64,000 nt of DNA from positions 153,571-217,570 of the IMG/VR virus record IMGVR_UViG_2881684137_000004. One strand, written 5' to 3'. Shown in pieces: positions 8,714 through 41,794 of the stretch. The notes below the pieces were generated by a model. It saw only the letters and a list, made by a program, of their open reading frames with translations, had not been told where the DNA came from and did not search any database. The number at the start of each line of letters is the position of its first letter. Positions within the stretch are counted from its first letter, which is position 1. A program made the translations under genes and the position numbers. The DNA comes from a virus (lineage: Duplodnaviria; Heunggongvirae; Uroviricota; Caudoviricetes).

Positions 8714-11317
8714 GTGGTGAATTCAATAGGTTTGGATAAGCAATATCATCTTTATAGTGTGGACACAAGCGCCTTTTACAATAATGAAGAAAATAAAATA
8801 CATACTCGAATAAAGAAAAGATTCCTAATTAGAAAAAACCTTAAAGCTTTATTTTCTAAGAAAAATCATACTGAAGATTATAAAAACAAAGTAGGCAGTT
8901 TAATAAAAAGTATAAATAAGAATTTAGAATTCAACAAAAAGAAATTAACCATCGAGTTTGAAAAACACAAGGGAGTAAGAAACCTTATTCCTGAGCATTT
9001 AAAAGCGAGGAATATTGTTTCTTCTTTTGATTCTGTATTAAGTAGAACTTTATCGATTAAACAAAATGATGTTACTAAAGATATTTTGATTGTCCAGACT
9101 TATTATTTTCAAATTTTAAAAGATATTATAGAGAATGGATTTATGTATAACAACGAGAAATACATATGCTTCACTGCTAGTGCAGGACAAATTAGAACTA
9201 AGAAAACGGTTTTTATAAAAGAAAGTGTTTTCGAGGAACATAAGAAATCTCTTATGTGTGGCTTGACTCTTGAAATAATTAACGATTTGGGTGGAGTAAA
9301 CATTAACAAATTTTTAGCTTATTTGGCTCTCTGTAATAGCGCTACAGATCATTGGACGAGCTTTAATATCGAAAAATCTATCGTTGTAGATGATATGGAG
9401 ACAAATGTTAATGCATTGTTTGATCATATCGATGATGAGACTTATCAAATAAGTAGAGAAAAAAGAGAAGTGCTAATCAATCATACTGATGGCTGTGGAA
9501 TGATGTTGCCTTCAGTAAATGACAAATCTTTTATGGTTAGGTTGCCATGGATCAAAGGATTACTCGTTCCATTCCCATTTGATAAATTTATTAACGATGA
9601 AAAAAGAAAAAGGGAAAAAAATGACAAAAAGTTTTGGTTAATTAAAGATATATATGGGCAAGAGCACGATGTAATTAAAGAAGGAATAGAGGTTATCTTC
9701 ACAAAGAGTCAATTCAAAATGTGGAAATACTATTCCAATTGGGAAGATTATATTAATAAATTTCAAGCAAATAATTGTCAAGCTGGGATGTGCAATGAAG
9801 AAGAGGCTTCTATACCTGAGACTAAGATTAACTATCAAATGTTGCAAACACTAACCAGTTTTAGTAATCAGCAGTTAAACACCCTTTGTCAGCCAACCAA
9901 CGATGAAATTACTAAAATCGCTACTGATCGAAAAACAATGCTTAAAGTATTGGGTGTAAACGATTCAAGGACGAATCTAAATTATTATCAATCTGCACTA
10001 AAGATATATCCCGAACTTCTTGCCGACAGTTATAGCAAAGAAATATTAAAACAACTCAAAAAGAAGAAAGTTATAGAAGGAAGAGCTGGAAAATTAAATA
10101 TTAAGGGTAAATATACTTTTATCTGTCCAGATCTATACGCTTTCTGTCAGTTTTTATTCTTAGGAATGGAGAAGCCCACCGGACTACTAAAAGAAGGTGA
10201 GGTGTATTGTTCTTTATATAAAGAAAAGAGTAAATTAGACTGTTTGAGAAGTCCTCATCTTTATAAAGAACATGCTGTCAGATACAATGTAACTGATAGC
10301 AGAATAAGCAAATGGTTTAAAACTAAAGGTTTATATACAAGCTGCCATGATCCTATTAGTAAGATACTAATGTTTGACGTTGATGGAGATAAGTGCCTAG
10401 TTTGTGCAGATGAGAATATTATATCTGTAGCGGAATTAGAAATGAAGGATATCGTACCATTAAACTACAACATGAGAAAAGCAGATCCGAATCAAATTAA
10501 TAATGGTGCTATCTATAAGGGTTTGAAAGATGCATATACCGGAGGAAACATTGGCATCATTAGTAACAATATTACTAAGGTGTGGAACAGCAAAGACATC
10601 AATCTAGATGTAATAAAGATTCTCTGTATGGAGAATAACTTTACAATCGATTATGCTAAAACTCTCTATAAGCCTGTAAGACCGCCAGAAATAGATACAA
10701 AAATAAAAAAATACACTGGAAATAAGAATCCTTACTTTTTCAAATATGCAAAAGAAAAAGATGATAAAGATATCGAAGAAATTAACACTAATACTGTAAA
10801 CAGAATAACCAAGTTAATAAAAAATCCAAGGTTGAATTTCAATGATGAAGGATTGGGCTTGTTTAACTATCGTTTTCTTTTGAGTGACCCAAGTAACAAA
10901 GAAATACATATTGATGAAACAATAGTAAATGAATACAAGAGGCTTGATCAAAAAAAGAAATTCATTCAAATGAAGCCAGATGAGTATGACACAACATTGG
11001 ATGGTGCGTACATCTTTGATGTCATTCGTAATTCTATTCTGGAGATTAACAGAGATATCCATTATGTAGTGGATGTATTAGTAGAGTATCTTTACAACTT
11101 TAAAAAAAGTAATTTTAAAACAACGTTATGGTCAGCATTTGGTGATATTCTATTAAATAATTTATCAAGAAATATTGAGCAGCGGTTTGAAGATGGATAC
11201 ATACAATGCGACTCTTGCGGTTTAAGAATAATAAAACAATCTAATCGACAAAAGATGTGTAAATCTTGTTATAGTGTATCGAATCGAATTAATGCTAAAA
11301 ACAAAAAAAATAAATAA
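8714..11317 (+). CDS. yonO: YonO-family single-subunit DNA-dependent RNA polymerase
   Basis: YSVDTSAFY, TASAGQIRTKK, HTDGCGM, MVRLPWIKG, LRSPHL, catalytic FDVDGD, IDYAKT, C-terminal CxxC..CxxC; exact start uncertain (GTG 8714, ATA 8726 or TTG 8732). Confidence 0.92.
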   Translation: MVNSIGLDKQYHLYSVDTSAFYNNEENKIHTRIKKRFLIRKNLKALFSKKNHTEDYKNKVGSLIKSINKNLEFNKKKLTIEFEKHKGVRNLIPEHLKARNIVSSFDSVLSRTLSIKQNDVTKDILIVQTYYFQILKDIIENGFMYNNEKYICFTASAGQIRTKKTVFIKESVFEEHKKSLMCGLTLEIINDLGGVNINKFLAYLALCNSATDHWTSFNIEKSIVVDDMETNVNALFDHIDDETYQISREKREVLINHTDGCGMMLPSVNDKSFMVRLPWIKGLLVPFPFDKFINDEKRKREKNDKKFWLIKDIYGQEHDVIKEGIEVIFTKSQFKMWKYYSNWEDYINKFQANNCQAGMCNEEEASIPETKINYQMLQTLTSFSNQQLNTLCQPTNDEITKIATDRKTMLKVLGVNDSRTNLNYYQSALKIYPELLADSYSKEILKQLKKKKVIEGRAGKLNIKGKYTFICPDLYAFCQFLFLGMEKPTGLLKEGEVYCSLYKEKSKLDCLRSPHLYKEHAVRYNVTDSRISKWFKTKGLYTSCHDPISKILMFDVDGDKCLVCADENIISVAELEMKDIVPLNYNMRKADPNQINNGAIYKGLKDAYTGGNIGIISNNITKVWNSKDINLDVIKILCMENNFTIDYAKTLYKPVRPPEIDTKIKKYTGNKNPYFFKYAKEKDDKDIEEINTNTVNRITKLIKNPRLNFNDEGLGLFNYRFLLSDPSNKEIHIDETIVNEYKRLDQKKKFIQMKPDEYDTTLDGAYIFDVIRNSILEINRDIHYVVDVLVEYLYNFKKSNFKTTLWSAFGDILLNNLSRNIEQRFEDGYIQCDSCGLRIIKQSNRQKMCKSCYSVSNRINAKNKKNK

Positions 11318-23942: not shown

Positions 23943-25169
23943 TTGAACTATTATGACTCTTACAGAGCTAAGTTATCTGTCTCAAAAAGAAAACCAAGAG
24001 AGCATTCCATTAATCATATGCAGAAAGTAATAAATAGTGGGTATGAAAACTCCATTTCATATGAGGAAGCATACTTTAATAATTCTGACTCATCAACAGG
24101 AATTCAAGTTGTAAGCGACACTAAGAATCCTAGTAAAAAAATCGTTCTTATGAGACCAGGTGAAAAAATAAGTGCTGGAGATTTAATCAAAAGAGAGAAC
24201 GACAGGGTTTGGTTATGTGTAAGTGAAGATGACAAAATAGCCTATAGTAAAGGGTTTATAGAAGAATGCGAAATCAGTTTAAAATGGTTAGACGAAAATG
24301 GGGAGTTACAAACACAACCATCCGTTTTCTACTTTAACACTCGTTCAAATTTCGGTGAGAAACTTGATAGAGTAATGGCATTACCAGATGGAAGAAGACA
24401 AACAATCTTACAGAAGAATGAACACACCTTGAAATTAAAACGTGGTAAGAGGTTTATTATCGGAGGGGAAGCATTTACTGTTATTGATTTTGACCATGTG
24501 AGTGATAAAGGCTTGGTTAACCTCAGTCTCCAGTCTCATCTAATTAACCCAACAGCAGATAACTTGGAATTAGAAGTGGCCGACTTTTATAATCATGTTT
24601 CGAATTATAAATTGAGTATTCTAAACGGTAACTTTGCATCAGTTAACGCCGATCAGAAATTGATTATTAATGCACAACTCTCTAATAGAGGTGTAGTAAT
24701 TGATAAACCGACAATTGAATTCAATGTTAGTAATGAAGATATTGCTACTATTAATGATGATGGGGTTTTAACACCATTAGACCATGGTATTGTCATCGTC
24801 ACAGCACACTTCCAAAACCTTACAGCTCAAATTCAAGTGAATATTTCACAACTAATTGTTTACAATTATTCGGGTCATATTAATGGTTCTGACAATATCA
24901 TTGTAGAGACCACAAAAGAGTATTCAGCAGTGTTTAAAAGAAATGGTGAAACAGTTCAAGATGAGAGTGATTTTTATCTTACAGACTTAGAAGGTAATAT
25001 CACGACTTTAGCTACGATAACCGACCAGGATAGTATACGAAATATATGTAGAATAAAAGCTGGTAAAAAGAAAAATCAATTTTCTACTGAAAAGTTTATT
25101 TTGCATGTTAGGAATAAAAGTGGCCTTTCAGCTAGTCAAAAAGTAATAACATTAAAACCATTATATTAA
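23943..25169 (+). CDS. Head closure-like protein with C-terminal Ig-like (Big_2) domain
   Basis: N-terminal ..GD.I..WLC..KG.IEEC..LKW; C-terminal VSNEDIATINDDGVLT..G.V.VTA. Confidence 0.6.
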   Translation: MNYYDSYRAKLSVSKRKPREHSINHMQKVINSGYENSISYEEAYFNNSDSSTGIQVVSDTKNPSKKIVLMRPGEKISAGDLIKRENDRVWLCVSEDDKIAYSKGFIEECEISLKWLDENGELQTQPSVFYFNTRSNFGEKLDRVMALPDGRRQTILQKNEHTLKLKRGKRFIIGGEAFTVIDFDHVSDKGLVNLSLQSHLINPTADNLELEVADFYNHVSNYKLSILNGNFASVNADQKLIINAQLSNRGVVIDKPTIEFNVSNEDIATINDDGVLTPLDHGIVIVTAHFQNLTAQIQVNISQLIVYNYSGHINGSDNIIVETTKEYSAVFKRNGETVQDESDFYLTDLEGNITTLATITDQDSIRNICRIKAGKKKNQFSTEKFILHVRNKSGLSASQKVITLKPLY

Positions 25170-25693: not shown

Positions 25694-25713
25694 TCTAGAA
25701 ATGAGGTGCGATC

Positions 25714-26187: not shown

Positions 26188-26193
26188 TATGCC

Positions 26194-26910: not shown

Positions 26911-26927
26911 TTAACGGAGGAATATAA

Positions 26928-27686
26928 ATGGCATTGGATTTAGGGCGTTATGGCTCAAGAGAAATTCTAAAACTGCAAGTATTTGATGCAGTAACCAGCA
27001 CACCACTAATGTATTTCGATTACGCTAACACAGCTTCGCAAGAATGGTCGTCATCGAGGGTTTATGCTACTGGTGCAGGTGTTCGACGGGTTGCATGGGA
27101 TGGCGACAAAGAGGAAACTCTGACTGTTGAAACGCAAATTTTTACTATGCAACACTTGGCAATGATCGCAGGTGAAGAAATTAAAAGCGGCGCAGCCAAA
27201 ATCTACAAATCTGAGGTGTTGCAAGTTCAGAGTGGTGGAAAGATCGAACTCAGCAAACCAGCAGTTGGTGGTGTATCATCAATCAGTGTATTTGAATTTA
27301 AAAACGGAATTATCACTGATCCTCAAGAGGTTGAAACCGTTACTGGTACTGATGTGACATTGGCAGCTTCAGCAACGGTAACAACAGGAGACGAAGTGGA
27401 AGTGTACTACCAATTCCAGTCCACAAGCTCCCACTCGCTGCAATTCACTGCCAAAGGCTTCCCGAAATATGTGAAGCTTGTCGGTGACACGCTGTATCAG
27501 GATGAGGTTGGTAATGAGGCAGTAGCTGCACAAATCGTGTACTACAAAGCAAAACTACAGCCAAACTTTAGTATTGCGATGAGTTCCACTGGTGACCCAA
27601 CGTCAATCTCGCTCGTTTTCGACTTGTTTCCTCAAAAAGTGGATGGAGTAGACGTTACAACTGAGATTGTATTGTACGAGGAGTAA
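26928..27686 (+). CDS. Major tail tube protein (YomU-like position)
   Basis: YGSRE..DYANT..VYA.G.G..V.WDG.KE.TLT.ETQIF..LA..AG; C-terminal F.I..SSTGDP.S..FD. Confidence 0.75.
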   Translation: MALDLGRYGSREILKLQVFDAVTSTPLMYFDYANTASQEWSSSRVYATGAGVRRVAWDGDKEETLTVETQIFTMQHLAMIAGEEIKSGAAKIYKSEVLQVQSGGKIELSKPAVGGVSSISVFEFKNGIITDPQEVETVTGTDVTLAASATVTTGDEVEVYYQFQSTSSHSLQFTAKGFPKYVKLVGDTLYQDEVGNEAVAAQIVYYKAKLQPNFSIAMSSTGDPTSISLVFDLFPQKVDGVDVTTEIVLYEE

Positions 27687-27704
27687 TAAATAAAAGCGTT
27701 TTTG

Positions 27705-27746
27705 ATAAGGTAGACAGGGTGAGTTATTATCGCTCTGTCTCCTTAT
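27705..27746 (+). terminator. Hairpin between tail tube and glycosyltransferase cassette
   Basis: ATAAGG-T-AGACAGGGTGA / TCGCTCTGTCT-CCTTAT. Confidence 0.6.
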
Positions 27747-27768
27747 TTAATAAAAAGGAATAATAAAT

Positions 27769-28503
27769 ATGAAAACATTACCTACTGTTACAATTGCAGC
27801 ACCAATAAGAAATAGAGCATACATTCTAAATCAATATCTTCATCATTTACAACAAATCGACTACCCGAAAGAGAGGATCAATATTCATTTTGTTGTAAAT
27901 GATTCAGTTGATGAATCATTACAAATACTTTTAAAATTTAAAAAGAACTATGGAAAAGAATATAACAAAGTAGTAATCGAAACATATAACAGGAGAGTAC
28001 CAGAAGATCGAAGAATATCACACATCAGAAATAATTACATTTTTGAGCATTTGAGTGTTATGAGGAATTACATATTATCAAAAGTAAAAACGGATTACCT
28101 TTTCTCGTGTGATTCAGACATTTTGGTTCCTGAAAACATCATACGTAAGCTGCTAGCCCATGATAAAGATATTGTTTCAGGTTTGATTTTTAATGGTTAC
28201 GTTGACCATGTTGTCCATCCATATGAATCCACAAATCTTATGAAATATGACTTTCATGGTAAATTAAATCATGTTAGCAATTATAAAATCATGACAGCAA
28301 AAGATAAAAACATCTCAGAACTCTTAGAAGTTGATGTAACAGGAGCAGTAATATTACTTACTAGTGATGTGTGTAAACAAGCTAAATACGGATGGCACTT
28401 TCAAGGTGAAGATATTTATTTCTGCAATCAAGCTAAAGAAAAAGGTTATAAGATCTACTGTGATATTGGAGCGTTTTGTTCTCATATCATGACTAGCAAA
28501 TAA
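27769..28503 (+). CDS. Glycosyltransferase, GT-A fold (GT2-like)
   Basis: VTIAAPIRNR, NDSVD, DxD motif CDSD, DVTGA, GEDIYFC. Confidence 0.88.
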   Translation: MKTLPTVTIAAPIRNRAYILNQYLHHLQQIDYPKERINIHFVVNDSVDESLQILLKFKKNYGKEYNKVVIETYNRRVPEDRRISHIRNNYIFEHLSVMRNYILSKVKTDYLFSCDSDILVPENIIRKLLAHDKDIVSGLIFNGYVDHVVHPYESTNLMKYDFHGKLNHVSNYKIMTAKDKNISELLEVDVTGAVILLTSDVCKQAKYGWHFQGEDIYFCNQAKEKGYKIYCDIGAFCSHIMTSK

Positions 28504-28515
28504 GGGAGAGAATTA

Positions 28516-29520
28516 ATGAAACAGAAAACCATTGTTTACGCTAATACAATTGATTGGGATCATCCACTACAGCAGCGTCCACATCACATAATGAAACTCT
28601 TTTCAGAGAATGGTTACAAAGTGTATTATGTGAATCAAAACAAGCGAACAGATAAGGTCAGAGATCGCATAAATGACAACCTAGAAGTGTATTATGATTT
28701 CGACGTGTTTTGTAGACGCGTACCTGAAGTCGATATTTATTTTTCCAGTTGGAGTTTTCGGTATGTGGATTTAGATAAATTAAAAGCAAAAGTAGTGGTT
28801 TATGATTCATTAGATAATTTTGAACAGAATGAGCCTGAAGAAATTAACATGATCAAAAGAGCAGACATTTTGTTCACGACAGCAAACACACTTTATGACG
28901 TTCGCAAGGAACAGCATGACAATATTGAAATCGTGCGTAACGGCTGTTTTGCTGAGTTTGTAAACAAAGAGTATGCAATACCTGCTGACCTAAAACCGTT
29001 CAAAGACAGTGGAAAACCAATCATACTTTTTTCAGGTGCTATGGCTTATTGGTGTGATCTTGAGCTGGTTGAAAAAGTAGCTAAGAAATATCAAGTTATC
29101 GTAGTAGGGATGCCATGGGCAATTGAAAAAATGCCTGAAGGTGTGCATTACCTTGGTAAGAAAAATTATAATGAGTTGCAGGCATATTATCATCATTGTG
29201 ATGTAAATTTATTACCATTCAAGCGTTGCCAAGTAGCCGACTTTTCTAATCCGATCAAAATGTATGAGGCTATGGTACACGGCAAGCCTACAGTTGCAAT
29301 GGACATTCCAGAGGTGTCTCACTATCCAGATGTTGTTTTATCCAGTGGTACTCATGATGAGTTTTTAAATAATGTAGAATATGCACTTCAATTATCTAAA
29401 TCACAAACCTTTGGTGAATTAGCTAAGTCAACTGCAAGACAGAATACTTGGTTACATAGATTCCAGCAGATGGACACTGTAATCAACAAGTACATTTTTG
29501 AAAATGGAATTCCACTATGA
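28516..29520 (+). CDS. Glycosyltransferase, GT-B fold (TuaH-like)
   Basis: QQRPHH, VYDSLD, VRNG, D.NLLPF, NPIKMYEAM..GKP.V. Confidence 0.88.
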   Translation: MKQKTIVYANTIDWDHPLQQRPHHIMKLFSENGYKVYYVNQNKRTDKVRDRINDNLEVYYDFDVFCRRVPEVDIYFSSWSFRYVDLDKLKAKVVVYDSLDNFEQNEPEEINMIKRADILFTTANTLYDVRKEQHDNIEIVRNGCFAEFVNKEYAIPADLKPFKDSGKPIILFSGAMAYWCDLELVEKVAKKYQVIVVGMPWAIEKMPEGVHYLGKKNYNELQAYYHHCDVNLLPFKRCQVADFSNPIKMYEAMVHGKPTVAMDIPEVSHYPDVVLSSGTHDEFLNNVEYALQLSKSQTFGELAKSTARQNTWLHRFQQMDTVINKYIFENGIPL

Positions 29521-30491
29521 AGCCCTTAAACATCTTGTTTACAAATACATGTCCTCTCATTAAATATGGAATGAAATCAGGCTTTGACAATCTTGGACAT
29601 CGTACATACATTATGGATGACCATTATCGTTTATGGGATAAAGATAAAGAGATTCAAAATGAGTTGTTTAAACAGGCTATTGAAGAGTACTCCATTGATA
29701 TCGTATTCACTGAACCATACGCAAATATGAGTGAAGGTATTTTTAAATGTACTCGTGAAAAAGGGATTTTTCATGTGTTTTGGTCAATCGAAGATACACC
29801 TCATGATCATTGGATAGGTGATTATTGGTCAGATTTTGCAGATTATATATTCACCACAACAGCAGAATGTTTGCCTAATTATTGGAGTAAAGGAAAAAAA
29901 GCAGATCTATTGCTGTTTGCTTGTAACCCAGACTACCATATGAAAACTGCTTCGATAGATAGTTACAGATTTGATTTAATAGTAGTTGGAAACAATTATG
30001 AGCGAAGAGAAAGTAAGGTTAAATCTTTTCTACAACCATTAATTAATAACAATATTAATATGAAGGTGTATGGGAATGAATGGTGGATAGATGAAACAAG
30101 GAGTTTCAATTTATTGAAAAGGCCGCATATTTATGGAGGATACTTAGCATATGAAGACATGCCTGCTGCCTACTCATCGAGTAAGATTGCATTTGGTTTA
30201 AACTTAGATGGTGATTCGTACACCCAGACATCGATGAGGATGTATGAAATTCTAGGGTGTGGTGGGGCACTGATGCTTTCTTATCACACTAAAGCCCAAG
30301 AGTTGTTATTTCATGATTTAGTTTACCTGCCAAAAACTCCAGATGAGGCACTACTAATGACAAAAGAAATACTGTCTATGACTGTTAAGCAGAGAGCAGC
30401 AAAGGCGAATAAGGCTCAAAAATTTGTTTATAAGTACCATAATTACACTAACAGGGCATCACAAGTAATTGATGCTTACAATGGTCGATAA
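29517..30491 (+). CDS. Glycosyltransferase, CgeB-like GT-B
   Basis: WSIEDTP, FACNP.YH, VGNNY.RR, SMRMYEILGCGG, H.Y..RA; ATGA overlap with previous gene. Confidence 0.85.
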   Translation: MKPLNILFTNTCPLIKYGMKSGFDNLGHRTYIMDDHYRLWDKDKEIQNELFKQAIEEYSIDIVFTEPYANMSEGIFKCTREKGIFHVFWSIEDTPHDHWIGDYWSDFADYIFTTTAECLPNYWSKGKKADLLLFACNPDYHMKTASIDSYRFDLIVVGNNYERRESKVKSFLQPLINNNINMKVYGNEWWIDETRSFNLLKRPHIYGGYLAYEDMPAAYSSSKIAFGLNLDGDSYTQTSMRMYEILGCGGALMLSYHTKAQELLFHDLVYLPKTPDEALLMTKEILSMTVKQRAAKANKAQKFVYKYHNYTNRASQVIDAYNGR

Positions 30492-30529
30492 TAATTTGAA
30501 ACAAACAAGTACAAGGGAGAGATTTGTAA

Positions 30530-31039
30530 ATGGCAAATTTAAAATTAAATCAACTGAAAAATAAAGTAGATAAAAAATACAATGGTAAGAAAAGAATTGA
30601 TCTTGGTGATAATTTTAAAATTGATATTGATACTGTGTTCAAACCTTCTAAAAAGAACGAAGTTTTACATGAGTATGCCTCACTATTTCAAGAGATGTTA
30701 AAGAAAAAAACAGTCTATTCAGACAGCAATCTCCTGACTGTTATCACGGCATTAATAATTAAAAAATTCACCTCATTGGAGACAGATGCTAAATCATATG
30801 AAGAGGTAATCGAAATGATGGAAATTCTACTAGACGGTGGCTACCTAAATAAAATAGTAGAAGCGTTAATGGGAGATGAAATGACAGCTTTAATAGAAGA
30901 GTTCGGCAAAGTTAATGAGGAAATTACAAATCATATTTATAAAGCAGCAGAAGAATTGGAAGAAGAAGCTAATACACTCAAGATCGATGCAGAATCTGTA
31001 GTAAATACTGAGGTTATCGACGATGAGCAAATCGTTTAA
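30530..31039 (+). CDS. Putative tail assembly chaperone (YomO-like position)
   Basis: Acidic helical protein; F.PSK..and IIKKFTSL motif; position. Confidence 0.5.
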   Translation: MANLKLNQLKNKVDKKYNGKKRIDLGDNFKIDIDTVFKPSKKNEVLHEYASLFQEMLKKKTVYSDSNLLTVITALIIKKFTSLETDAKSYEEVIEMMEILLDGGYLNKIVEALMGDEMTALIEEFGKVNEEITNHIYKAAEELEEEANTLKIDAESVVNTEVIDDEQIV

Positions 31040-31457: not shown

Positions 31458-31482
31458 ACGATGAAATTTAGAAGGTGAAAAT

Positions 31483-32469
31483 GTGAGTGAAAAATTAGAA
31501 AAAATACCAGATGTAACTCAAGAGGAGTTTGATAAATTTGATGATTTTAATAAAGAGATACTTGAGGAGTTTTTACAGCAACAACATTTAAGTGAACAAA
31601 CGCTGTCACAGTACAATTCTGCATTAAAGATTTTCTTTAGGTTTGTTTATGAAAAGTGCAGAAATCTTCCTTTGTATGATCTTAAACCTCGACATGCCCT
31701 ACTTTATCAAAACTTTTTAATGGCAAGAGGGCTATCTTCAAGTGCTGTAAAGTTAAAGAGATCAGCAGTTTCTTCTCTCTGTGGTTATATTGAAGTGTAT
31801 AGATCAGATGAATACCCATTATTCAGAAATATATATAACAAGAAAATTCCAAATCCACCAAAGACACAAACACATGAGAAAAAGCCACTAACTGTTGAAG
31901 AACTACAATATTTAATTGATGAATTAGAGAAGCGTCAGGAATGGCAAATGATTGCATATATTCAGTTCAGTTATGATTCAGGTTGCAGGCGAGGTGAAGT
32001 TCGTCAATTATTAAAGGAAGTAGTTGATTATGCTTATGTAAAGGATCAGAAAACAGGAGACGAAAAAAACTACTATTTAACTCACAATATTCGATGTAAA
32101 GGAAGAGGGCGAATAGGCAAGGTAAGAAAATTAATTTTCTCAGATGTTTCCAAAGATGCTATTCGTAAATGGTTGAAGGTAAGAAGCGAAGATGACAATC
32201 CGTTTGTATTTGTAGTTAAAACAAGAGATGGCAAGGTAACTCAGGTCTCATTAGGTATATTTAATGATTGGTGCACTAATACTTTTAGCAAAATAATGGG
32301 AAGACGCGTACATCCCCACCAGCTTCGTGCTTCTCGTGCTACGAATTTAGTGGCATATGAAGGAAAAGATATTGAAAAAGTTAAAAATCTATTAGGCCAT
32401 CAGAGTTCAGAAACCACCAAAATATATGTTGTAAAAGAAGGCGAAGATGATGTTGACGATCTTTTCTAA
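31483..32469 (+). CDS. Tyrosine recombinase in late tail module (YomM-like)
   Basis: SGCRRGE, CKGRG, HPHQLRASRAT, LLGHQSSETT.IY: full R-K-H-R-H-Y set. Confidence 0.92.
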   Translation: MSEKLEKIPDVTQEEFDKFDDFNKEILEEFLQQQHLSEQTLSQYNSALKIFFRFVYEKCRNLPLYDLKPRHALLYQNFLMARGLSSSAVKLKRSAVSSLCGYIEVYRSDEYPLFRNIYNKKIPNPPKTQTHEKKPLTVEELQYLIDELEKRQEWQMIAYIQFSYDSGCRRGEVRQLLKEVVDYAYVKDQKTGDEKNYYLTHNIRCKGRGRIGKVRKLIFSDVSKDAIRKWLKVRSEDDNPFVFVVKTRDGKVTQVSLGIFNDWCTNTFSKIMGRRVHPHQLRASRATNLVAYEGKDIEKVKNLLGHQSSETTKIYVVKEGEDDVDDLF

Positions 32470-32478
32470 TCAGGAGGA

Positions 32479-33085: not shown

Positions 33086-33167
33086 AGTCCATGTCTCCAA
33101 TTAGATATGGGCTTTTTTGCTAATGAATCTCTGAGAGCAGACTCATACTACTGCTCTTTTATTTTTT
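33086..33167 (+). terminator. Two tandem terminator-like hairpins immediately upstream of the TMP RBS
   Basis: AGTCCATGTCT/AGATATGGGCT+TTTTT and GAGAGCAG/CTGCTCTT+TTATTTTTT. Confidence 0.6.
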
Positions 33168-33184
33168 CAGAAAGGAGTAGAGAC

Positions 33185-34918
33185 ATGTCAAACGATTTAA
33201 GAATCTTAGTAAATGTTGGTGTAAATGAAGGTAAATCAATTGGTGAAATAAATTCTGCAATTAGCAAAATATCTAAGAGTGACGCATTACGAAGCATAAA
33301 GCTAAAGTTGGATATAGATTCTAAAGTTATTCAAACTTTAAATGAATTTAGTAAGAACTTGAGTAAAATATCTCAAATCTCCAATACCCAGAATGCGGCT
33401 TTGAATGGTGTAACATCTCAAGTTAAAAATCAATCGGATGCTTTTGATAAAGCAGCAACATCTGCAAGGAACTATATAAAAGAACAAGAAAGATTATCCA
33501 GAATTACTGGTAAACAGACTACAGTTTACGGTAATCCAAATAATAGCAATAAAACTACTGTTAGTGGTCGGAGTGGTGGAATCCAGGATATTGTTGACTC
33601 CTATAATCCTAAAAAGGATTTGGCTGATCAGACTAAGCTTGCTAATCAGATTGCTGATGGACGGATCAAAGCTCAAGAGAAATTCGAAAAAATGGAAGCA
33701 GATTCCCAGAAGAAGCGAATTGAAGCAGCTCATCGATTAGCAAATGTAGAGAACAAGAGAATAGATGATCGGAAAAATTTAGAACGAGAATACGATCAGT
33801 TTTGGCAGAAATCTTTACATAGTCGAACTCAAGAAGAATTAAAAGTAGCCAACAAACTTGCTAGTGATCGCAAAGCACTCGAACAAAGTGTTGATGAAAG
33901 ATGGCAAAAGAATTTAAAAGAACGAGAGCAAAAACAGCAGAATCTTGAACAAGGCAGAATAAAGAATGAGAACCAAGCATGGCATCAGGCTCATTTAGAA
34001 AAAGAGAAGCGAGAACAATTCTTACACGGACAACGAGTTCAGGATACATACAGAGCTTACAGTTTGGCTCAAGCTGAAGATAAAAAATACAATCAGAAAA
34101 GATTGCAAGATGAAATCAGTTTTCAGCAACAAAAAGCACGTTTAGAAACAAAATTAGCCGATACAAATAGAAGATTTGGTGCAGACAACAAAATAAAAAC
34201 ACAGGTTAATGAATTAAATTCTGCATTGGCCAATACAGCTTACACTAAGAATTATCGAAATGCATTAGCAGATATAGACATTCAACTTAAACGAGTTGTG
34301 TCCACCGCTAATACGTCAGGATCGCACATTGATAAATTCTCTCAGCAGATGGGTATTGCTGCTTCAAGGACAATTCAATGGGGTTTGACAATGGGTGTGT
34401 TATATGGCTCATTAAACAAGCTAAAACAGGCTGTTGGTGTCATTCTAGAAGTAGATAAGCAAATTACCACATTGAAAAGGGTAATGAACGAAGATACAAA
34501 CTTCGAGAAGATGATGCAGGGTAGTATAAAGATCGCAAATGAATTGGGTAGATCGATAATCCAAGTTAATGATGCAATGACTGGATTTGCAAGACAAGGT
34601 TACTCAGAAGATCAAGTATTGGCATTGAGTAAAACTGCAACGTTAATGACAAACATCTCTGAGTTGTCAGGCGATGAAGCAATGAGTTCGCTCACAGCTG
34701 CCATGACAGTATTCAATATTGAAGCAAGTAATAGTATGCGAATTATAAATTCTTTAAATGAAGTAGACAACAACTTCGCCATTGGCACTAAAGACCTTGC
34801 TATTGCTATGCAAAAATCAGGATCAGTTGCGAAGACATTCGGCGTAAGTCTTGAAGAATTAGTCGGACACACAGCAGCCATTGGTATTCAAACTAGAGAA
34901 AGTGGAAGCATTATCGGT
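33185..34918 (+). CDS. Tape measure protein, exon 1 (578 codons)
   Basis: AAGGAG RBS before ATG 33185; TP901-type core ..LNEVDNNFAI..GVSLEELVGHTAAI..TRESGSIIG ends at intron. Confidence 0.88.
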
Positions 34919-36283
34919 AAACAACTTGCCGCCTAATGTAGTAATGCATTAGTGAACATTTTACTATATCGGGGGAAGCGTTGGGGAACGTAATCCCGAG
35001 GGAAGATTATTGTGAGGAAATAGAAAAAGTGGTGATATGGATTTTAATAAAAGATCAAAAAGTTGTTGTTGTATGGAACACTCGAAACAAAGCTGTCTTT
35101 CAAGGGTTTGGTTATATCTTTACAAGTTTTGGCGACAGTATTACAGTTGAGCTATTGGAATTGACTAAACATTCACGTACAAAAGTCAATGTTGAATGTG
35201 ACTATTGTAAAAAAGTTTATAAACTACCCTATGCGCAGGCACAACGTGCTGAGAGACATTTATGCTCAAAGCAGTGCAGACATCTAATCGATAAGATAGA
35301 AAGCAGATGTTACATATGCAATATAAAGACACTAAAAAATAGAACACAAATGAATAAAAGGCAATCTGAATTTACATTTTGTAGTTTGAAATGCGTAGGT
35401 TCATATAATTCTAAAGTTAGAACAACTCACATATCTAAAGATTGCTTGATATGCAACAAACCTTTTAAAGTAAAACCCAGTACCTCTGAGACTCAAGTAG
35501 TGTGTTCTATAAAATGTCAAGCTTCTTGGCAGTCAATGTATCTCAGAGGAGAAAGCGCTAATAACTTCAAAGGTGGAAATGTAGATCTAACTTGTAGTAC
35601 TTGTACTGAACAGTATTCGGTAGCTCGACATAGAATCAATTCTTCTAAGTTCTGTTCTCAGTCTTGCAAACAAGATTATTGGAAGAATTACATTCTTCAT
35701 AATGAAGCTTTCAAAAAAGCACACTATGAAGGAAACTTGAGGTGGAGAGCGAATATTAGACAAACACTTCCCGAAAAAATGGTAAGAGAATGGTTAGTGA
35801 ACAATAATATTGATTTTATGCAGGAACAAGGATTTTTTCATAAGTACTATGCAGACTTTTGGTTAAAAAATACAAATATTATTATTGAAGTTTTCGGAGA
35901 TTATTGGCATGCAAACCCTCTAAAATATAATTCCGATAATTTAAATGAGCACCAAAAAGCACAGATCATAAAAGATGAGCAGCGGCTTAACGACTTTAAG
36001 AAACATGGTTTTAATGTTTTAATACTATGGGAAGATGATATTTATAATCATCTCGATAAGCTAATGAAAGACAAATTACTCACAATATATCCCCTTAACG
36101 ACTACACGTAGAATACCCTAATGGGGTAATGATATAGTCTGAACTTACGCTATAACCTTGTATTCTTTAAGGCGTAGAGAATCGGTCGAGTGTAAAGACA
36201 CTCTAGGGAGTACCGATTCCGCTATTTCAAAGGAAGTAGAAATAGTCAGTAGCTTACTTAAAGTAAGTGAAAGTAACAGATTG
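34919..36283 (+). mobile_element. Group I self-splicing intron (1365 nt) with homing endonuclease in P6
   Basis: P1 CGGT^AAACAACTTGCCG with U.G at splice site; P4 ATCGGG/CCCGAG; P6a TATTGTGAG/CTCACAATA; R AACGACTAC (36097-36105); S GATATAGTC (36131-36139); terminal G36283; splicing restores RESGSIIG-NSLKTIYSRL in frame. Confidence 0.92.
35041..36111 (+). CDS. Intron-encoded homing endonuclease: Zn-finger repeats plus Vsr/DUF559 (EDxHD-type) nuclease
   Basis: Repeated CxxC..CSxxC; PEK..YADF..IEVFGDYWH..KD..R..GF.VL.LWE; start probably ATT 35041 or GTG 35029-35032. Confidence 0.85.
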   Translation: MLIKDQKVVVVWNTRNKAVFQGFGYIFTSFGDSITVELLELTKHSRTKVNVECDYCKKVYKLPYAQAQRAERHLCSKQCRHLIDKIESRCYICNIKTLKNRTQMNKRQSEFTFCSLKCVGSYNSKVRTTHISKDCLICNKPFKVKPSTSETQVVCSIKCQASWQSMYLRGESANNFKGGNVDLTCSTCTEQYSVARHRINSSKFCSQSCKQDYWKNYILHNEAFKKAHYEGNLRWRANIRQTLPEKMVREWLVNNNIDFMQEQGFFHKYYADFWLKNTNIIIEVFGDYWHANPLKYNSDNLNEHQKAQIIKDEQRLNDFKKHGFNVLILWEDDIYNHLDKLMKDKLLTIYPLNDYT

Positions 36284-39200
36284 AATAGCTTAAAAACCAT
36301 TTACTCTAGACTTACAACAATGGATTCGGCAATAGGTGCACTTGACAGCGTTGGTGTTTCAGTCAAAGAATCAAACGGACAAATGAAGTCAGCAACAACA
36401 ATCATCGATGAATTGGCTGGAAAATGGGATGGACTTAGTGCTGCAAAGCAGCAAAATATTGCTGTTGACATAGCTGGCCGTTATCAACTTTCACGCTTCC
36501 TTGCTCTAATGGGTGGATATGATCTGGCAATTTCAGCTACAGAAGCAGCTTTAAACTCACAAGGCTCTGCAATGCGAGAAAATGCCAAGTACATGGAATC
36601 ACTCGAAGCACGAATCGAACGAATGAAAACACAATGGCAAGAGCTTGCTCTAACAATGGGCGATGCGGTACTAACCAATACACTGATTAACCTAATTAGT
36701 GTTGCAACAGAATTGGGCAATAGCTTAGTCACTGTAATTGATAAGTTCGGGTTATTCCCTCCGCTTTTAGGTACTGTAGCAATGGCTTATGTACTTTTTT
36801 CTGCCAAAGCCAGAGCATCAATATTAAGTGTAATTGGTATAATCACCGCTAAGACTAGTGTATTGCACAGTGTAACAGTTGCTACGACAATATGGGGTAC
36901 TTCCATGGGGATGTCAGGCGTTGCTGTTCGAGCATTAACTGTGGCTACAGTTGGTTTAACGATGGCTGTTAGAGGGCTAATGATTGTAACAGGTGTTGGA
37001 TTGGCTGTTGCAGCGTTAGGTTTTATAGTTGAAAAACTTGTCAATAAATTCGGAAATGCAAACAAAGTAATTGATGAAACTAGCATGTCTATTGATAAGT
37101 TGAACGAGTCGGCCTCAAATTTAAATGGTCTAAAAAAGCTTGCATCTGAATATGAGAAGTTCAAAGATATAACCGATTTAACGCTTGAGGATAAAACTAA
37201 ACTAGCAACAATTGAAAACGAACTAGCTAGTTCATATGGAATTACGACAACATCATTGCTTGAAAATAAAGATGCCTATGAAGTAAATAATGCTCTTATT
37301 GAAGAATCAATCAAATTAAAAGAAAAAGAATTGGCATTAAAATATGAGAATGAGATACTTTCATATAAATCAGATAAAAGCAATATCGATCAGCAAATCA
37401 TTGATAGTAAGAACAGATTAAAAGCGTTTGAGGATGAGAAGAAAGCACTGCTAGAGTTGGAAAAGCAAGGTGAAAACTTAAAAAGGCAAGATTTAAATCT
37501 CACCGGAGATGAGATGCTTAAATACCAGAAGAAAGACCGAAAAATGGGTCTTCTTGTAGATGTCTCTTGGAATCCGTTAGAAATTCTAGCTGCTAAAATT
37601 AAAGAAGCCAACAGTAAAATAGATACTGAACTAGTTAAGCTTGATGAAAACCTCAGCAAAAAATCATCTAGTATTTCTGCCAAGCTGAAAACATCAGCTA
37701 CCATGCTTAAAAACAATGGTGTGGAAATTAAAGATGCATCTTCTATTTTGATAGATGGTTTTTCAGCAATTGCTGCAATTAATGATATTGACTTTGATAA
37801 CTCAACTGTTCTTGAAAAGATTGTTAAAGAACTAAATTCACTTGATATAACTTCGATAGAAGATGTAGAAGCTGCTTTTAATAAATTTGGTAATGCAGCT
37901 GGGAATAACACAGACGCTTTGGAGATCTTGAAGAATGCTTATCTTCGTTATCAGGTAGCGATTAAAAGCGGCTCTTATGATAGTGGCGAAGATCCTGCCG
38001 ACCAGTTTGAACAAGATGCTAAAGCAGCTAAAGATGCAGCTAAAGAGTACGACAATCTGGTTAGTGACTTAAAAAAATTAAATCAAACGCTTTATGATAC
38101 AAGAGATGGAAAGTCATTAACAGCCGAAGCCACACAAGAATTAATAGCCAATTTCCCTGAACTGTTAGATGGTATTTATAAAACTACAGCAGGATGGGGA
38201 ATTGAAGAAATTGCCTTGAATGATTTAAGAGAGGCAATTATCGAGAAGGCGACTCAAGGGTCAATTAGTGAAAAAAATGCAACGGCTGCGGCTCTAAATG
38301 AAATTACCAAGAGAACAAAGATGTACGGTGTTGAAATCGAAGCCATTAATGACGTCCAATCGGCTCGTGATGCCCTGGTAAAATTTGATGAGAAGATAAG
38401 TTTTTATGAAAGCCAAGAGCCTAATACATATGGGCAAAAATTAATGTGGGAAGCATTAGCGAACCAAGTCAGGACTCAAAAAGAGGCTCTTGAGGGATTG
38501 GTCAATGATGGAGCACTAGAAGATACTACTTATAAGGCATTTCAATCACACCTGGATAAACTTAATGACATTTTTAATGACAAAACTTTCGGTGTAACAG
38601 AGAGCACAAAAAATAGTACAAAAGCCAAAGAGAAAGATAACAAAGAAACCAAAGAAACAATTCGCCTGTTAACAGAGTGGCAGAAAAAGTTATTAGATGT
38701 TGATAATTCGCTTCACAAAGTGTACAGCGATCGCACACGTTTTGCGAAATGGTCTAAGGAGTATCAAGATTCTTTAAAAGAGGAAATTAGACTTCTTAAC
38801 GAAAAAAAAGATATTTATAAAGAAGCTACTAAAGATCCTACCAAGCTCATGGAGATTGAGCAGACCATTACAAAGACGACATCAACAAAAACTGGTACGC
38901 CTTCTACGAACACAAACACGAATACAAACAATACAGCAAGTACACCAGCTTTAACAGCGTTATTTGATAAAGCAAAAGAATTATATGGAAGTTTTAAGTA
39001 CGAACAAAATGGTGGGAAATTCGTTGGAACTTTTGAAGAGTTTCTGAAAAAGGCTGAATCAGATTGCTCACAACTTGTTCAAGAGTTTTTCAAAGAATTT
39101 CTTAATATCGATGTTCCGCGAGTTGCCGCTGACCAGTTCAAGCAAGGAATGAAAGTCGCCAAAGAAGAACTTGCTCCTGGTGATCTCGTTTTCTTTAACA

Positions 39201-41794
39201 CAACTGGAAAAACCGCATCACATGTTGGGATCTATAAAGGTAAAGATAAGTTTGTCCACATGGGTTCAACAAGTAAACTTAGTGAGCAGAGTTTGAAAGA
39301 TAGTTACTGGGCTTCTAAATATGATGGTGCAAGACGTATTGATGGTGTGAATAGCGCGGCTCCTTATAAAGCGACTTCATCTTCAACAGCTACGACATCG
39401 AGTTCTAAAACTGAGACAGCTCAACCCACACAGGATCAGCTTGAAGCAGGTGCACGAGAAGCAGAACAGAATTATAGAGATATGATGGATCTGATTTATC
39501 AAAGACAGATCAACCTTATTGATAGCCTTGTTGAAACATCAAATCGTGAACTTAAAAAAATTGATACCAGCATCTCTAAAGATAGCTATAAGAAAACACT
39601 TGTTAAAGATACTTCCGAAGAATGGCGAAAACTGAATTTAAACGAATATGACTATTACACTCAAAAGCAAAAAGAACTAAGCAATCAGAATAACACCATT
39701 CGAAAACACATTGCCGAATTTGGAATCACATCTGGTGAATTTGATGATTTATTAGAGCAGAATAGTCAAGAGTGGCTGAAATATCAAGAGAAAAAGAATC
39801 AAAATTTGATCAGTAGCCTTGAAAGTATACGCAATGAGATATCAAATAAATATTCTTCTCAAAGAGCCACAACAGATCGAAGAATCTCCTTAATAGGCGA
39901 TGTCAATACAGAAGAAGATGCAAAAGCAATTGCAAAATATGGTGCGGCTACAGTTAAATCGCTTAAGAATGAACACAAGGATATTTATGCTCAAATTGTT
40001 AAACAGCGTAAAATCTTAAATGATCCTAAATCTTCAGGTTCAGAAAAAAATGCCGCTCGTTTTATTTTAGATGAATTAGAACTCGATGCCAATAACAAGA
40101 ACGTTGAAATGATCAACGCTGCAAGGAATTACGGCAAACAACAAGCAGAAGCATTTGTATTTGGATTTAATGATACGATTGAAGAACTAAACTTTCAAAT
40201 GTCTCTTTTAGGTGATTCTGAGGAAGATAAAAAAAGAGCAAAAGAACTAACCGAAGAGCTTCTTCAAGTGGCTATGGATTCATACAAAGCATTGCAACTC
40301 CAATTAATAGAGCTACAGAGGAAACTCGGGACAGAATTATCTAATGATGAACGTGCAGAAAAACAAGCCAAGTATGACGCAATGAAAGAAGATGCTAAAA
40401 AGTTTCAACTTCAAATCACCAAAATAAATAATGATGCATTCAATGATCGGGAACGCGAAGCTGACAATATTATTTCGAATTACAAAAGGATGCTTGAGCA
40501 AGAAAAGAAACTTCGTCAAGATTTTTTGAAAGAAGCTAAAAAGGACGAAGATGAACGCCACAAAGCGAAAATAAAAAACTTAGATGAAGAGTTAAATAAA
40601 TTCCAGGAGCAAATAAATGCCCAATTAAAATCATTAGATTCGGATATTTCAAAAGAAGATTATGAAGAAGGGCGAAATAAGCTCTTAAAAGAACGAGAAG
40701 AAATTCAGAAAAAAATTGATATTTTATCGCTTGATGATTCTTTCGAGGCAAAGGCAAAGAAAAAAGATTTGCAAACGCAATTGGATCAAAAAGATGAAGA
40801 TATCATCAAGTATCAACGTGATCGCGAACGAGTTCTTAGAAAAGAAGGGTTGCAAAAGCAGCTAGAAGATCGAACTAAAAGCATTGAGAATGAGAAAAAG
40901 CTTGAAAACGATTTTTACGAATCTAATATTAAGAATATTGATAAAGAATTGGAAATGTTAGATAAGTACTATGAACAGCGACTTACTGATGAGAAATTCT
41001 TTTATGACATGAAGAAAAATCTAATGTCAGAAGATACGCAAGTTGTTATCAATGAATTGAAAAAAATTGAAATGGAATACGCAAAATTCTTCGCAGAGAT
41101 CGAGCGAAACTCAAAGATATATGGTGATAAAATTGCAAGCAATCTCACTTATTCATTCGGTAAAGATCTTGACAATGCAAAGAATTTTAAGAACGGTGAG
41201 ATTGGTAATGGTTCTGGTGGAAATGCGGAAAATTCACCAAAACCAAGCGTTGCTGACACGATTGCTGCCTGGAACAAGTATCTTGAGAATAAAAAACAAG
41301 CAGAAGAACTTGCTAAGACAATTAAAAACACAACTTCTAAAGAATTGATCGACTTATCTCGGTCAAAGATCGCTGAGCTTAATACAGCAAATAACGAATA
41401 CAGAAGTAAACACAAGTTCAAAGATGGAGGCTATAATGAGCTGGTTAATTTACCTTATAATCAAATCTTCAGTGCGGAATCGGGTGGAATGACGCCTGCT
41501 TGGGGAAAAGAAGGCAAGCTCTTAATGGCACATGAAAAAGAGTTGATTTTAAATAAAACGGATACGAGTAAATTGCGTGATGCAATCCAAATTACACGAG
41601 ATATTTTCAATGGCTTGAAAAATTTTGATTTTTCGAATATTTTAGCTCGTCCTAGATCTGGAGATAGCTCTACTGGAACGGTTATTAATAAACTTGAAAT
41701 AAACGTGTCTGGTAATTTTGCTCAACGCAATGGTAATGATGTAGGTGTAAACATTATTGATGAAATGAAAAGAATGGGAGTAAAGTTCAGTTAA
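36284..41794 (+). CDS. Tape measure protein, exon 2, with internal NlpC/P60 peptidoglycan hydrolase domain
   Basis: NSLKTIYSRL..AGRYQLSRF.ALM; TM segments; coiled coils; DCSQLV..PGDLVFF..HVGIY..FVH near 39060-39270; spliced product about 2414 aa. Confidence 0.9.
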   Translation, partial: NSLKTIYSRLTTMDSAIGALDSVGVSVKESNGQMKSATTIIDELAGKWDGLSAAKQQNIAVDIAGRYQLSRFLALMGGYDLAISATEAALNSQGSAMRENAKYMESLEARIERMKTQWQELALTMGDAVLTNTLINLISVATELGNSLVTVIDKFGLFPPLLGTVAMAYVLFSAKARASILSVIGIITAKTSVLHSVTVATTIWGTSMGMSGVAVRALTVATVGLTMAVRGLMIVTGVGLAVAALGFIVEKLVNKFGNANKVIDETSMSIDKLNESASNLNGLKKLASEYEKFKDITDLTLEDKTKLATIENELASSYGITTTSLLENKDAYEVNNALIEESIKLKEKELALKYENEILSYKSDKSNIDQQIIDSKNRLKAFEDEKKALLELEKQGENLKRQDLNLTGDEMLKYQKKDRKMGLLVDVSWNPLEILAAKIKEANSKIDTELVKLDENLSKKSSSISAKLKTSATMLKNNGVEIKDASSILIDGFSAIAAINDIDFDNSTVLEKIVKELNSLDITSIEDVEAAFNKFGNAAGNNTDALEILKNAYLRYQVAIKSGSYDSGEDPADQFEQDAKAAKDAAKEYDNLVSDLKKLNQTLYDTRDGKSLTAEATQELIANFPELLDGIYKTTAGWGIEEIALNDLREAIIEKATQGSISEKNATAAALNEITKRTKMYGVEIEAINDVQSARDALVKFDEKISFYESQEPNTYGQKLMWEALANQVRTQKEALEGLVNDGALEDTTYKAFQSHLDKLNDIFNDKTFGVTESTKNSTKAKEKDNKETKETIRLLTEWQKKLLDVDNSLHKVYSDRTRFAKWSKEYQDSLKEEIRLLNEKKDIYKEATKDPTKLMEIEQTITKTTSTKTGTPSTNTNTNTNNTASTPALTALFDKAKELYGSFKYEQNGGKFVGTFEEFLKKAESDCSQLVQEFFKEFLNIDVPRVAADQFKQGMKVAKEELAPGDLVFFNTTGKTASHVGIYKGKDKFVHMGSTSKLSEQSLKDSYWASKYDGARRIDGVNSAAPYKATSSSTATTSSSKTETAQPTQDQLEAGAREAEQNYRDMMDLIYQRQINLIDSLVETSNRELKKIDTSISKDSYKKTLVKDTSEEWRKLNLNEYDYYTQKQKELSNQNNTIRKHIAEFGITSGEFDDLLEQNSQEWLKYQEKKNQNLISSLESIRNEISNKYSSQRATTDRRISLIGDVNTEEDAKAIAKYGAATVKSLKNEHKDIYAQIVKQRKILNDPKSSGSEKNAARFILDELELDANNKNVEMINAARNYGKQQAEAFVFGFNDTIEELNFQMSLLGDSEEDKKRAKELTEELLQVAMDSYKALQLQLIELQRKLGTELSNDERAEKQAKYDAMKEDAKKFQLQITKINNDAFNDREREADNIISNYKRMLEQEKKLRQDFLKEAKKDEDERHKAKIKNLDEELNKFQEQINAQLKSLDSDISKEDYEEGRNKLLKEREEIQKKIDILSLDDSFEAKAKKKDLQTQLDQKDEDIIKYQRDRERVLRKEGLQKQLEDRTKSIENEKKLENDFYESNIKNIDKELEMLDKYYEQRLTDEKFFYDMKKNLMSEDTQVVINELKKIEMEYAKFFAEIERNSKIYGDKIASNLTYSFGKDLDNAKNFKNGEIGNGSGGNAENSPKPSVADTIAAWNKYLENKKQAEELAKTIKNTTSKELIDLSRSKIAELNTANNEYRSKHKFKDGGYNELVNLPYNQIFSAESGGMTPAWGKEGKLLMAHEKELILNKTDTSKLRDAIQITRDIFNGLKNFDFSNILARPRSGDSSTGTVINKLEINVSGNFAQRNGNDVGVNIIDEMKRMGVKFS

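Follow-up and report, generated by a model that had tools for sequence, protein, structure and literature searches.

To our knowledge, among tailed phages the covalent glycosylation of virions by phage enzymes has been shown only in mycobacteriophages; among viruses, it is also known in giant viruses. In mycobacteriophages, the modification reportedly shields the particles from antibodies. The precedent consists of the virions of Che8, Corndog, and Myrna, three mycobacteriophages that are reported to be glycosylated (Freeman et al. 2023, Cell Host Microbe). In the present study, we analysed a stretch of 64,000 nucleotides from a tailed phage (G000:C22:337768-401767 of a 7.7 Mb genome; hereafter, the window), in which three glycosyltransferase (GT) genes, designated GT1, GT2, and GT3, lie between the tail tube gene and the chaperone and tape measure protein genes. 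We found that this cassette is accessory and polymorphic among related phages and that, where present, it is always in the slot between the tail tube gene and the chaperone genes. Late glycosylation of virion proteins is the best-supported reading of its function and has, in our estimation, about an even chance of being right.

A second described system is the spore crust of Bacillus subtilis. Its hexameric protein CgeA reportedly receives a sugar at Thr112 from CgeB, according to preliminary biochemistry, while it is in the cytoplasm. Glu83, Arg155, and Arg238 of CgeB are the predicted catalytic and diphosphate-binding residues, and CgeD, a GT-A enzyme, has been proposed to extend the CgeA glycan (PMC13577073). 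As for the transcription of phage structural genes, SPbeta has its structural and lysis genes in a single operon that is transcribed by the polymerase YonO (PMC5467207). This polymerase is without the domains by which others respond to pausing at hairpins and to termination (PMC5467207; PMC8270828).

The window lies inside a low-GC block (C22, about 185,000-405,000) of about 220 kb, with a GC content of 0.33-0.36 against a genome mean of 0.483, and this block is a very large SPbeta-like prophage. In the cassette, GT1 (27769..28503, + strand) encodes a protein of 244 amino acid residues that matches the Pfam families Anp1 (57.9 bits) and Glycos_transf_2 (34.4 bits), both above the cut-off. GT2 (28516..29520, + strand; 334 residues) matches Glyco_trans_1_4 (38.2 bits, cut-off 27), and GT3 (29517..30491, + strand; 324 residues) matches PF13524 (Glyco_trans_1_2) with 62.6 bits against a cut-off of 25. 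The GC content of the cassette equals that of its flanks.

An original prediction, made from the sequence alone, had read these open reading frames (ORFs) as a GT-A enzyme with a DxD motif, a TuaH-like GT-B enzyme, and a CgeB-like GT-B enzyme, all soluble. The three co-oriented + strand ORFs, their placement between the tail tube gene and the chaperone and tape measure genes, and the overlap of the GT3 start with the GT2 stop (ATGA) were confirmed, and the Pfam matches and conserved motifs bore out the assignments to the GT-A, GT-B, and CgeB-like GT-B types. Neither a transmembrane segment nor a signal-like N-terminus was found in GT1, GT2, or GT3 (the maximum Kyte-Doolittle mean over 19 residues was 1.27), in agreement with soluble enzymes. 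The label 'TuaH-like' held only in part: GT2 is of the GT-B family, but it scored 50.1 bits with the TuaH equivalog, for which the cut-off is 550.

In GT1, D115-x-D117, G213-E214-D215, and H239 are invariant among 13 orthologues with 25-52% identity. The AlphaFold2 model of GT1 (predicted local distance difference test (pLDDT) 93.4, predicted template modelling score 0.91) gave at least 500 matches at E<=0.001 when compared with the PDB by Foldseek, and all among the matches listed were GT-A enzymes. The best fold matches (E 1e-16 to 1e-11) were COLGALT1, the GT domain of LH3, Mnn9, ppGalNAc-T2, and mimivirus R699. The sequence support for these fold neighbours is weak, and a fold search of BFVD with GT1 gave generic viral GT-A matches only. 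COLGALT1 (the human collagen hydroxylysine galactosyltransferase), LH3, yeast Mnn9, and the polypeptide GalNAc-transferases act on proteins or protein-bound glycans. Judging from the model, GT1 is predicted to be a metal-dependent glycosyltransferase of the GT-A fold. The model of GT3 (pLDDT 96) has a GT4-like GT-B fold, and its top matches were BshA, the serine-rich-repeat-protein glycosyltransferases Gtf3/GtfC, and PimA. PF12996, a DUF3880-type N-terminal domain, was detected on GT3 and on most of its homologues, several of which are named as CgeB family; by its Pfam domains, GT3 is a putative member of this family. R164 and R241 of GT3 are invariant and E92 is nearly so among 27 homologues, in a spacing that resembles Glu83/Arg155/Arg238 of CgeB, which itself lies outside the alignment.

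To find related cassettes, we used a search seeded with GT3, which is blind to position, and obtained five loci from Paenibacillus genomes and 14 IMG/VR contigs. All of these 19 loci contained the tail tube gene, GT1, GT2, GT3, and the chaperone-region genes, co-oriented and either overlapping or a few nucleotides apart, with identities to the proteins of the window of about 44-52% for GT1, 32-38% for GT2, and 58-62% for GT3. The same slot was occupied across three tail tube types (24-58% identity to that of the window) and at least three head types. Two distant viral contigs, L078 and L080, whose GTs are 29-47% identical, also keep this order after a 27%-identical tail tube gene. A survey of whether GT triplets stay linked to tail tube genes had been suggested in the original prediction, and the linkage thus holds in 19 of 19 GT3-seeded loci and in both distant contigs. 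In another contig, L079, a 256-residue ORF 5' of the GT pair gave a weak match to a tail tube profile (hhalign E 4e-4, probability 33%).

The presence and composition of the cassette vary among relatives. A search seeded with the tail tube in 200 genomes of the family detected 20 related loci beyond that of the window; in 19 of them the tail tube gene was followed directly by the chaperone gene without GTs, and the remaining one, from another genus, had the same three GTs in the same slot. When an alignment of the head-side marker p170 was used (a scan with the single p170 sequence gave no matches), 25 loci were obtained: 12 had GT1, GT2, and GT3; five had GT1 and GT2 with a different GT4-family enzyme; two had GT1 with one GT-B enzyme; five were without the cassette; and a weak partial match, L111, stood outside these classes. 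The cassette was present in seven of the 16 IMG/VR loci detected with the type-A tail tube. GT1 is thus the constant first gene of the cassette, and its GT-B partners are swapped or lost.

One of the 19 GT-less loci is in the genome that contains the window, as a second prophage tail module (L023, G000:C61:62,000-82,500) with an 87%-identical tail tube and an unrelated head module. The two loci are a natural pair, with and without the cassette, in one cell. In two relatives, free-standing ORFs resembling homing endonucleases (HNH_repeat; DUF7487) are inserted at L055:7085-8221 and L057:7842-8984, where they separate GT1 either from the tail tube gene or from GT2.

Some of the distant cassettes contain further genes. 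L078 (6648-9324) has a sugar epimerase/dehydratase and a split transketolase in addition to the cassette, and L086 (5893-14319) adds a fused double GT2, a polysaccharide pyruvyl transferase, a UDP-glucose dehydrogenase, and two methyltransferases; such extended cassettes would imply more elaborate glycans made by the phages. In L081, the further genes encode a radical SAM enzyme and two GTs, one of the GT4 family and one GT-D-like. Outside this group, the archaeal Methanobacterium virus PhiF1 (L063, 14903-15610) encodes a homologue that matches GT1 over its full length with 34% identity. Large ORFs of the head region lie on one side of it and the capsid gene on the other, which makes it a second, independent case of the GT-A family of GT1 within a virion gene module. 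Among 50,697 deposited phage records, megablast of positions 26000-33000 gave no match; tblastn gave no match for GT3 and only one unannotated faecal contig for GT2. None of these records, and no cultured phage, carries the cassette.

The transcription signals around the cassette bear on the time of its expression. A terminator-like hairpin with an 11-bp stem lies just 3' of the tail tube stop codon (27712..27740, + strand). Nearly all GT-carrying relatives have a GC-rich hairpin after this stop codon (-18 to -26 kcal/mol), usually followed by a T-run, and in GT-carrying loci the ribosome-binding site and the start of GT1 come within about 15-25 nt of it. GT-less relatives mostly have the same hairpin ahead of the chaperone gene. 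The original prediction had stated that the cassette has no obvious promoter of its own. There is indeed no room for one; a sigma-70-like match (TTGATA-17-TATTAT, 27702-27730) is present 5' of GT1, overlapping the hairpin, but we rejected it as a promoter because it is not conserved and because such matches are no more frequent than in shuffled sequences (31 found, 36.6 expected). No terminator was found after GT3, where 38 nt without a hairpin lead to the next gene. A moron is recognised by its own promoter on the 5' side and its own terminator on the 3' side; here, only the hairpin and a ribosome-binding site were found 5' of the cassette. As there is no promoter space, expression by read-through of the late operon is expected. 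We infer from these signals that synthesis of the GTs is late and that its level is that of the chaperone and tape measure genes.

The course of virion glycosylation that we propose is as follows. During lytic growth, a YonO-type phage polymerase would continue past the hairpin that follows the tail tube gene, and GT1, GT2, and GT3 would be made at the low level of the downstream chaperone and tape measure genes. By using host nucleotide sugars, the enzymes would assemble a short O-linked glycan on at least one exposed protein of the virion before the cell lyses. The initiator on the protein may be either the constant GT-A enzyme GT1 or the CgeB-type GT3, and the GT-B partners would extend the glycan. 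The scheme of the original prediction, with one initiating and two extending enzymes, is compatible with GT1 as the constant first gene, but GT3 could equally initiate. Swapping or loss of the GT-B partners would produce different virion 'glycotypes' among related phages. The support for virion glycosylation is indirect and comes from the fold neighbours of GT1, which are protein glycosyltransferases, from the action of CgeB on a crust protein, and from the lack of room for a promoter. The constant slot across tail tube and head types, the YonO homologue of the prophage, the GT1 homologue in the structural module of PhiF1, the polymorphism at one fixed locus, with sugar-modifying genes and methyltransferases in distant versions, and the mycobacteriophage precedent also speak for it.

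Several findings weigh against virion glycosylation. The fold likeness of GT1 is at the level of the GT-A family (template modelling (TM) score 0.7-0.77, 15-18% identity) and does not fix the acceptor. The cassette is dispensable, being absent from five of the 25 head-side-matched and nine of the 16 tail-tube-matched viral loci. Position by itself counts for little as evidence, since the slot that follows the tail tube gene is occupied by unrelated cargo in Clostridium phage c-st and by homing endonucleases in relatives. The families of GT1, GT2, and GT3 form chromosomal clusters beside sporulation genes, which makes a spore-surface role possible. No acceptor signature was detected, either. 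The original prediction had pointed to a Thr/Ser-rich 'insert' of the tail tube, VETVTGTDVTLAASATVTTG, as a possible acceptor; this segment is not an insert, as it belongs to the conserved beta-rich middle region of the protein and aligns column for column with the tail tubes of GT-less relatives. We rejected it as a cassette-specific acceptor, since relatives without the GTs have it too and phages with three different tail tube types, and several head types, carry the cassette. Across seven proteins of the head, neck, and tail tube, no difference in Ser/Thr content was seen between phages with and without GTs. Collagen-like acceptors, an idea taken from the likeness to COLGALT1 and LH3, were also rejected because no Gly-X-Y repeats were found across the prophage. 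The only Ser/Thr-rich run in the prophage is in the tape measure protein. Relatives of the YomX-like neck protein often bear Ig-like domains, and to propose the neck protein as the acceptor is speculative; no acceptor protein can be named.

To examine cellular homologues, we searched 400 Bacillota genomes with a GT1 profile. Strong stand-alone GT1 homologues were found in several families, including nine of the 11 sampled genomes of one family, and in most of the chromosomal GT1 loci that were fetched, GT2 and/or GT3 homologues adjoin. No phage structural genes were detected within 9 kb of the fetched loci. In L148 (G213:C10:65500-84500), a chromosomal GT3-GT2-GT1 trio is flanked by spoIIR, a gene for a YhcN/YlaJ-like sporulation lipoprotein, veg, ksgA, and ispE, and adjoins two ORFs of unknown function (281 and 191 residues); L146, L147, L149, L151, and L154 are further trio loci of the same Bacillota family. 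The trio of the L148 type is a candidate spore-surface glycosylation cluster. In another family, GT1 and GT3 lie beside genes of nucleotide-sugar synthesis (a CapD-like dehydratase, an RmlD-like reductase, and a UDP-GlcNAc 2-epimerase), and a chromosomal cluster of Clostridium drakei contains two GT3-like genes, one GT2-like gene, and TPR-bearing GTs. Taking these gene neighbourhoods together, the trio is an old functional module of spore-formers, plausibly a cytoplasmic kit for surface glycosylation.

The host of the prophage has a glycan cluster of its own (G000:C9:136,000-150,300), probably a spore or surface polysaccharide locus. It comprises two genes of the CgeB family and several of the GT2 family, together with genes for an RmlA-like nucleotidyl transferase and an epimerase. 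A recent capture of the GTs from the host was rejected because no host gene is closer to GT3 than a CgeB-like one with only 22% identity. From the chromosomal clusters, one could propose that a clade of very large SPbeta-like phages of Paenibacillus and other Bacillota took over a spore-coating GT set (a CgeB-type GT, a GT-A enzyme, and a TuaH-like GT) to glycosylate its own virions late, with GT-B swaps giving rise to glycotypes. We offer this takeover tentatively, as its chance of being correct falls somewhat short of even.

Remodelling of the spore surface or of the cell surface, the two taken together, is an unlikely function of the cassette. As for spores, the cassette would be cargo that alters the glycans of the spore coat or crust of the lysogen, as its cellular CgeB-type relatives probably do, and would change spore hydrophilicity, adhesion, or phage adsorption. 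Because the same three GT families cluster by sporulation genes in other Bacillota (spoIIR, the YhcN/YlaJ-like gene, veg, and ksgA, in the family with GT1 homologues in nine of 11 sampled genomes), the spore-crust alternative raised in the original prediction is more credible than was assumed there, and it agrees with the CgeB family of GT3, with the nucleotide-sugar genes beside GT1 and GT3 in the other family, and with the integration of SPbeta in spsM, a tie to spore polysaccharide synthesis (PMC8270828). However, the cassette is inside a late structural operon, the hairpin that precedes it leaves a sporulation-sigma promoter no space, and the late genes of SPbeta need the phage polymerase (PMC5467207). 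In addition, the host already has its CgeB-like cluster, at 22% identity, and no cgeA-like gene turned up in family scans of the neighbours, no search aimed at CgeA having been made. Spore-surface remodelling by itself is, on balance, improbable.

The alternative that the GTs decorate wall teichoic or teichuronic acid, a secondary cell wall polymer, or an S-layer glycan precursor at the cytoplasmic face, and thereby block superinfection or keep progeny from adsorbing to debris, is also doubtful. Without a promoter of its own or a downstream terminator, the cassette is unlikely to be expressed in the lysogen, and late expression shortly before lysis leaves little time for remodelling of the wall. 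A membrane partner, a flippase, and a priming transferase are absent from the prophage. The original prediction had noted the lack of a flippase, of GtrA/B, and of sugar-synthesis genes, and this holds across the whole of the prophage, in which we found no epimerase, no nucleotidyl-transferase, and no further GT2-family or CgeB-family gene. Its argument that soluble enzymes speak against surface conversion was too strong, since the wall-teichoic-acid glycosyltransferases TarP (prophage-encoded), TarM, and TagE are also soluble and cytoplasmic. These known enzymes favour a cell-envelope role, as do the weak likeness of GT2 to TuaH, although that match is far below the cut-off, the slot after the tail tube gene as a cargo hotspot (Clostridium phage c-st), and the polysaccharide pyruvyl transferase and UDP-glucose dehydrogenase of distant cassettes. 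Far less probable is the glycosylation of modified bases of the phage DNA before packaging, by which restriction would be evaded. GT-B enzymes glucosylate the DNA of T-even phages, and the T4 alpha-glucosyltransferase appeared at rank 39 of the GT3 fold matches, but the nearest folds of GT1 are protein glycosyltransferases and the cassette is in the tail operon, outside the replication region. The prophage contains a single thymidylate-synthase-family gene; it scores as a true thymidylate synthase (TIGR03284, 253 bits, cut-off 108), keeps the dUMP-type Asn, and lies about 170 kb from the cassette, and no hydroxymethylase was found in the prophage.

The surroundings of the cassette are those of an SPbeta-like late operon, and the loci related to that of the window come from Paenibacillus species. 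The prophage is jumbo-sized for a temperate siphophage, and its composition is strongly unlike that of the host. From about 8.7 kb, the + strand contains the gene for a YonO-like single-subunit RNA polymerase (8714..11317, + strand), the terminase, portal, and head genes, the YomX-like neck gene, and the tail tube gene; 3' of the latter follow the GTs, a pair of genes in the chaperone position, a recombinase-like gene, the tape measure gene, and distal tail genes of the YomG/YomH type. The YonO-like protein, the presumed transcriber of the late operon, shares about 50% identity with an ORF of SPbeta, phi3T, and SPR-group phages in an alignment that covers 98-99% of it. The YomX-like 'head closure knob' protein (23943..25169, + strand; Atlas feature score 0.97 to YomX_C/Big_2 clusters) is kept 5' of the cassette in relatives. 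The tail tube (major tail) protein (26928..27686, + strand) matches phrog_2729 at 2.5e-68, and its tblastn matches are annotated as tail tube or major tail proteins in large Bacillus siphophages.

On the 3' side of the cassette, two small overlapping genes in the tail-chaperone position (30530-31039 and 31023-31457, + strand) match phrog_7383 and phrog_19892, two families without a known function; where relatives lack the GTs, the tail tube gene adjoins the first of these genes directly. They are followed by a tyrosine-recombinase-like gene (31483..32469, + strand; Pfam Phage_integrase), and in both Geobacillus virus E3 (gp28) and Brevibacillus phage Sundance (gp33) an annotated integrase takes this place. 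The recombinase-like gene appears to be a conserved yet unexplained trait of this phage supergroup. The tape measure gene (33107..41794, + strand) is split by an intervening ORF (34981-36111), so that its PhageMin_Tail domain is divided between 33107-34936 and 36158-41794; the intervening ORF encodes 376 residues with a weak match to a Vsr endonuclease. Another feature of the late cluster is a region of about 600 nt without an ORF of at least 50 residues (25694-26292), between a gene for a 170-residue protein and the gene 5' of the tail tube gene. A gap of like size is found at the same place in relatives of the window, and it could contain an internal promoter or an RNA element. An Rfam search at the gathering threshold gave no match across the window, this gap included.

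If the cassette does glycosylate virions, virion glycosylation would be a recurrent phage strategy and not an actinobacterial oddity, with an unrelated enzyme set borrowed from spore-surface glycosylation. This would bear on the stability and adsorption of phages, on their persistence in soil and gut, and on phage therapy. The takeover, if true, would be the first case of Bacillota phages that glycosylate their virions, with enzyme families unrelated to those of mycobacteriophages. The novelty of virion glycosylation at this locus would lie in the different enzyme families, the different host phylum, the fixed polymorphic locus, and the evolutionary link to spore-surface glycosylation. Our search of the literature on virion or capsid glycosylation in Bacillota phages found nothing relevant, which is no proof of absence. 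As several sequenced Paenibacillus strains carry the cassette, its fixed polymorphic locus is a directly testable system, and it could reveal acceptor rules of CgeB-type protein glycosyltransferases, which are poorly known so far. Should the remodelling of spores or walls prove to be its role, the cassette would represent a new form of lysogenic conversion, concealed in a late operon.

Compared with known systems, the cassette shares with GtrABC of enterobacterial phages and TarP of Staphylococcus prophages that the GT genes are prophage-borne and that the sugar donors are those of the host. It differs from them in having three enzymes instead of one, placed in a late structural operon with no promoter of its own and no membrane partners of the GtrA/GtrB type. 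A Gtr-type system consists of the GtrA flippase, GtrB, and an integral-membrane GT, whereas here the three proteins have no hydrophobic segment and the prophage no further GT2-family gene. In structure, GT1 comes closest to COLGALT1, LH3, and their giant-virus relatives, such as mimivirus R699 and PLOD-like GT domains (Foldseek E 1e-16 to 1e-13, query TM score 0.7-0.77). These are Mn-dependent GT-A enzymes that act on proteins and have DxD-type motifs, as GT1 has; the prophage has neither collagen-like repeats nor a lysyl hydroxylase, and the identity is 15-18%.

With Che8, Corndog, and Myrna, the locus shares phage-encoded soluble GTs in a set that varies by lineage, sometimes with methyltransferases (here in the distant L086), and, as the proposed target, exposed capsid or tail proteins that receive sugars from host donors. 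Unlike in mycobacteriophages, the host here belongs to Bacillota, the phage is a temperate SPbeta-like one of about 220 kb, and the slot between the tail tube and chaperone genes is fixed; tblastn of the three GTs against the phage records gave no actinobacteriophage match. No Ser/Thr-rich acceptor extension was found here, where virion glycosylation is a proposal. The spore-crust system of B. subtilis (PMC13577073) differs in that its genes lie in sporulation operons with mother-cell specific expression, whereas the cassette is in a phage tail operon and late lytic expression is expected; no cgeA-like partner was recognised here (no dedicated CgeA search was made), and the CgeB-like gene of the host is 22% identical. 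In other respects the two systems are alike: GT3 is in the Pfam family of CgeB, and each of the two has a GT-A enzyme as its partner (CgeD in the case of CgeB); the same families are found near sporulation genes elsewhere; and in both, cytoplasmic enzymes have a self-assembling protein shell as their target, proposed in the case of the phage.

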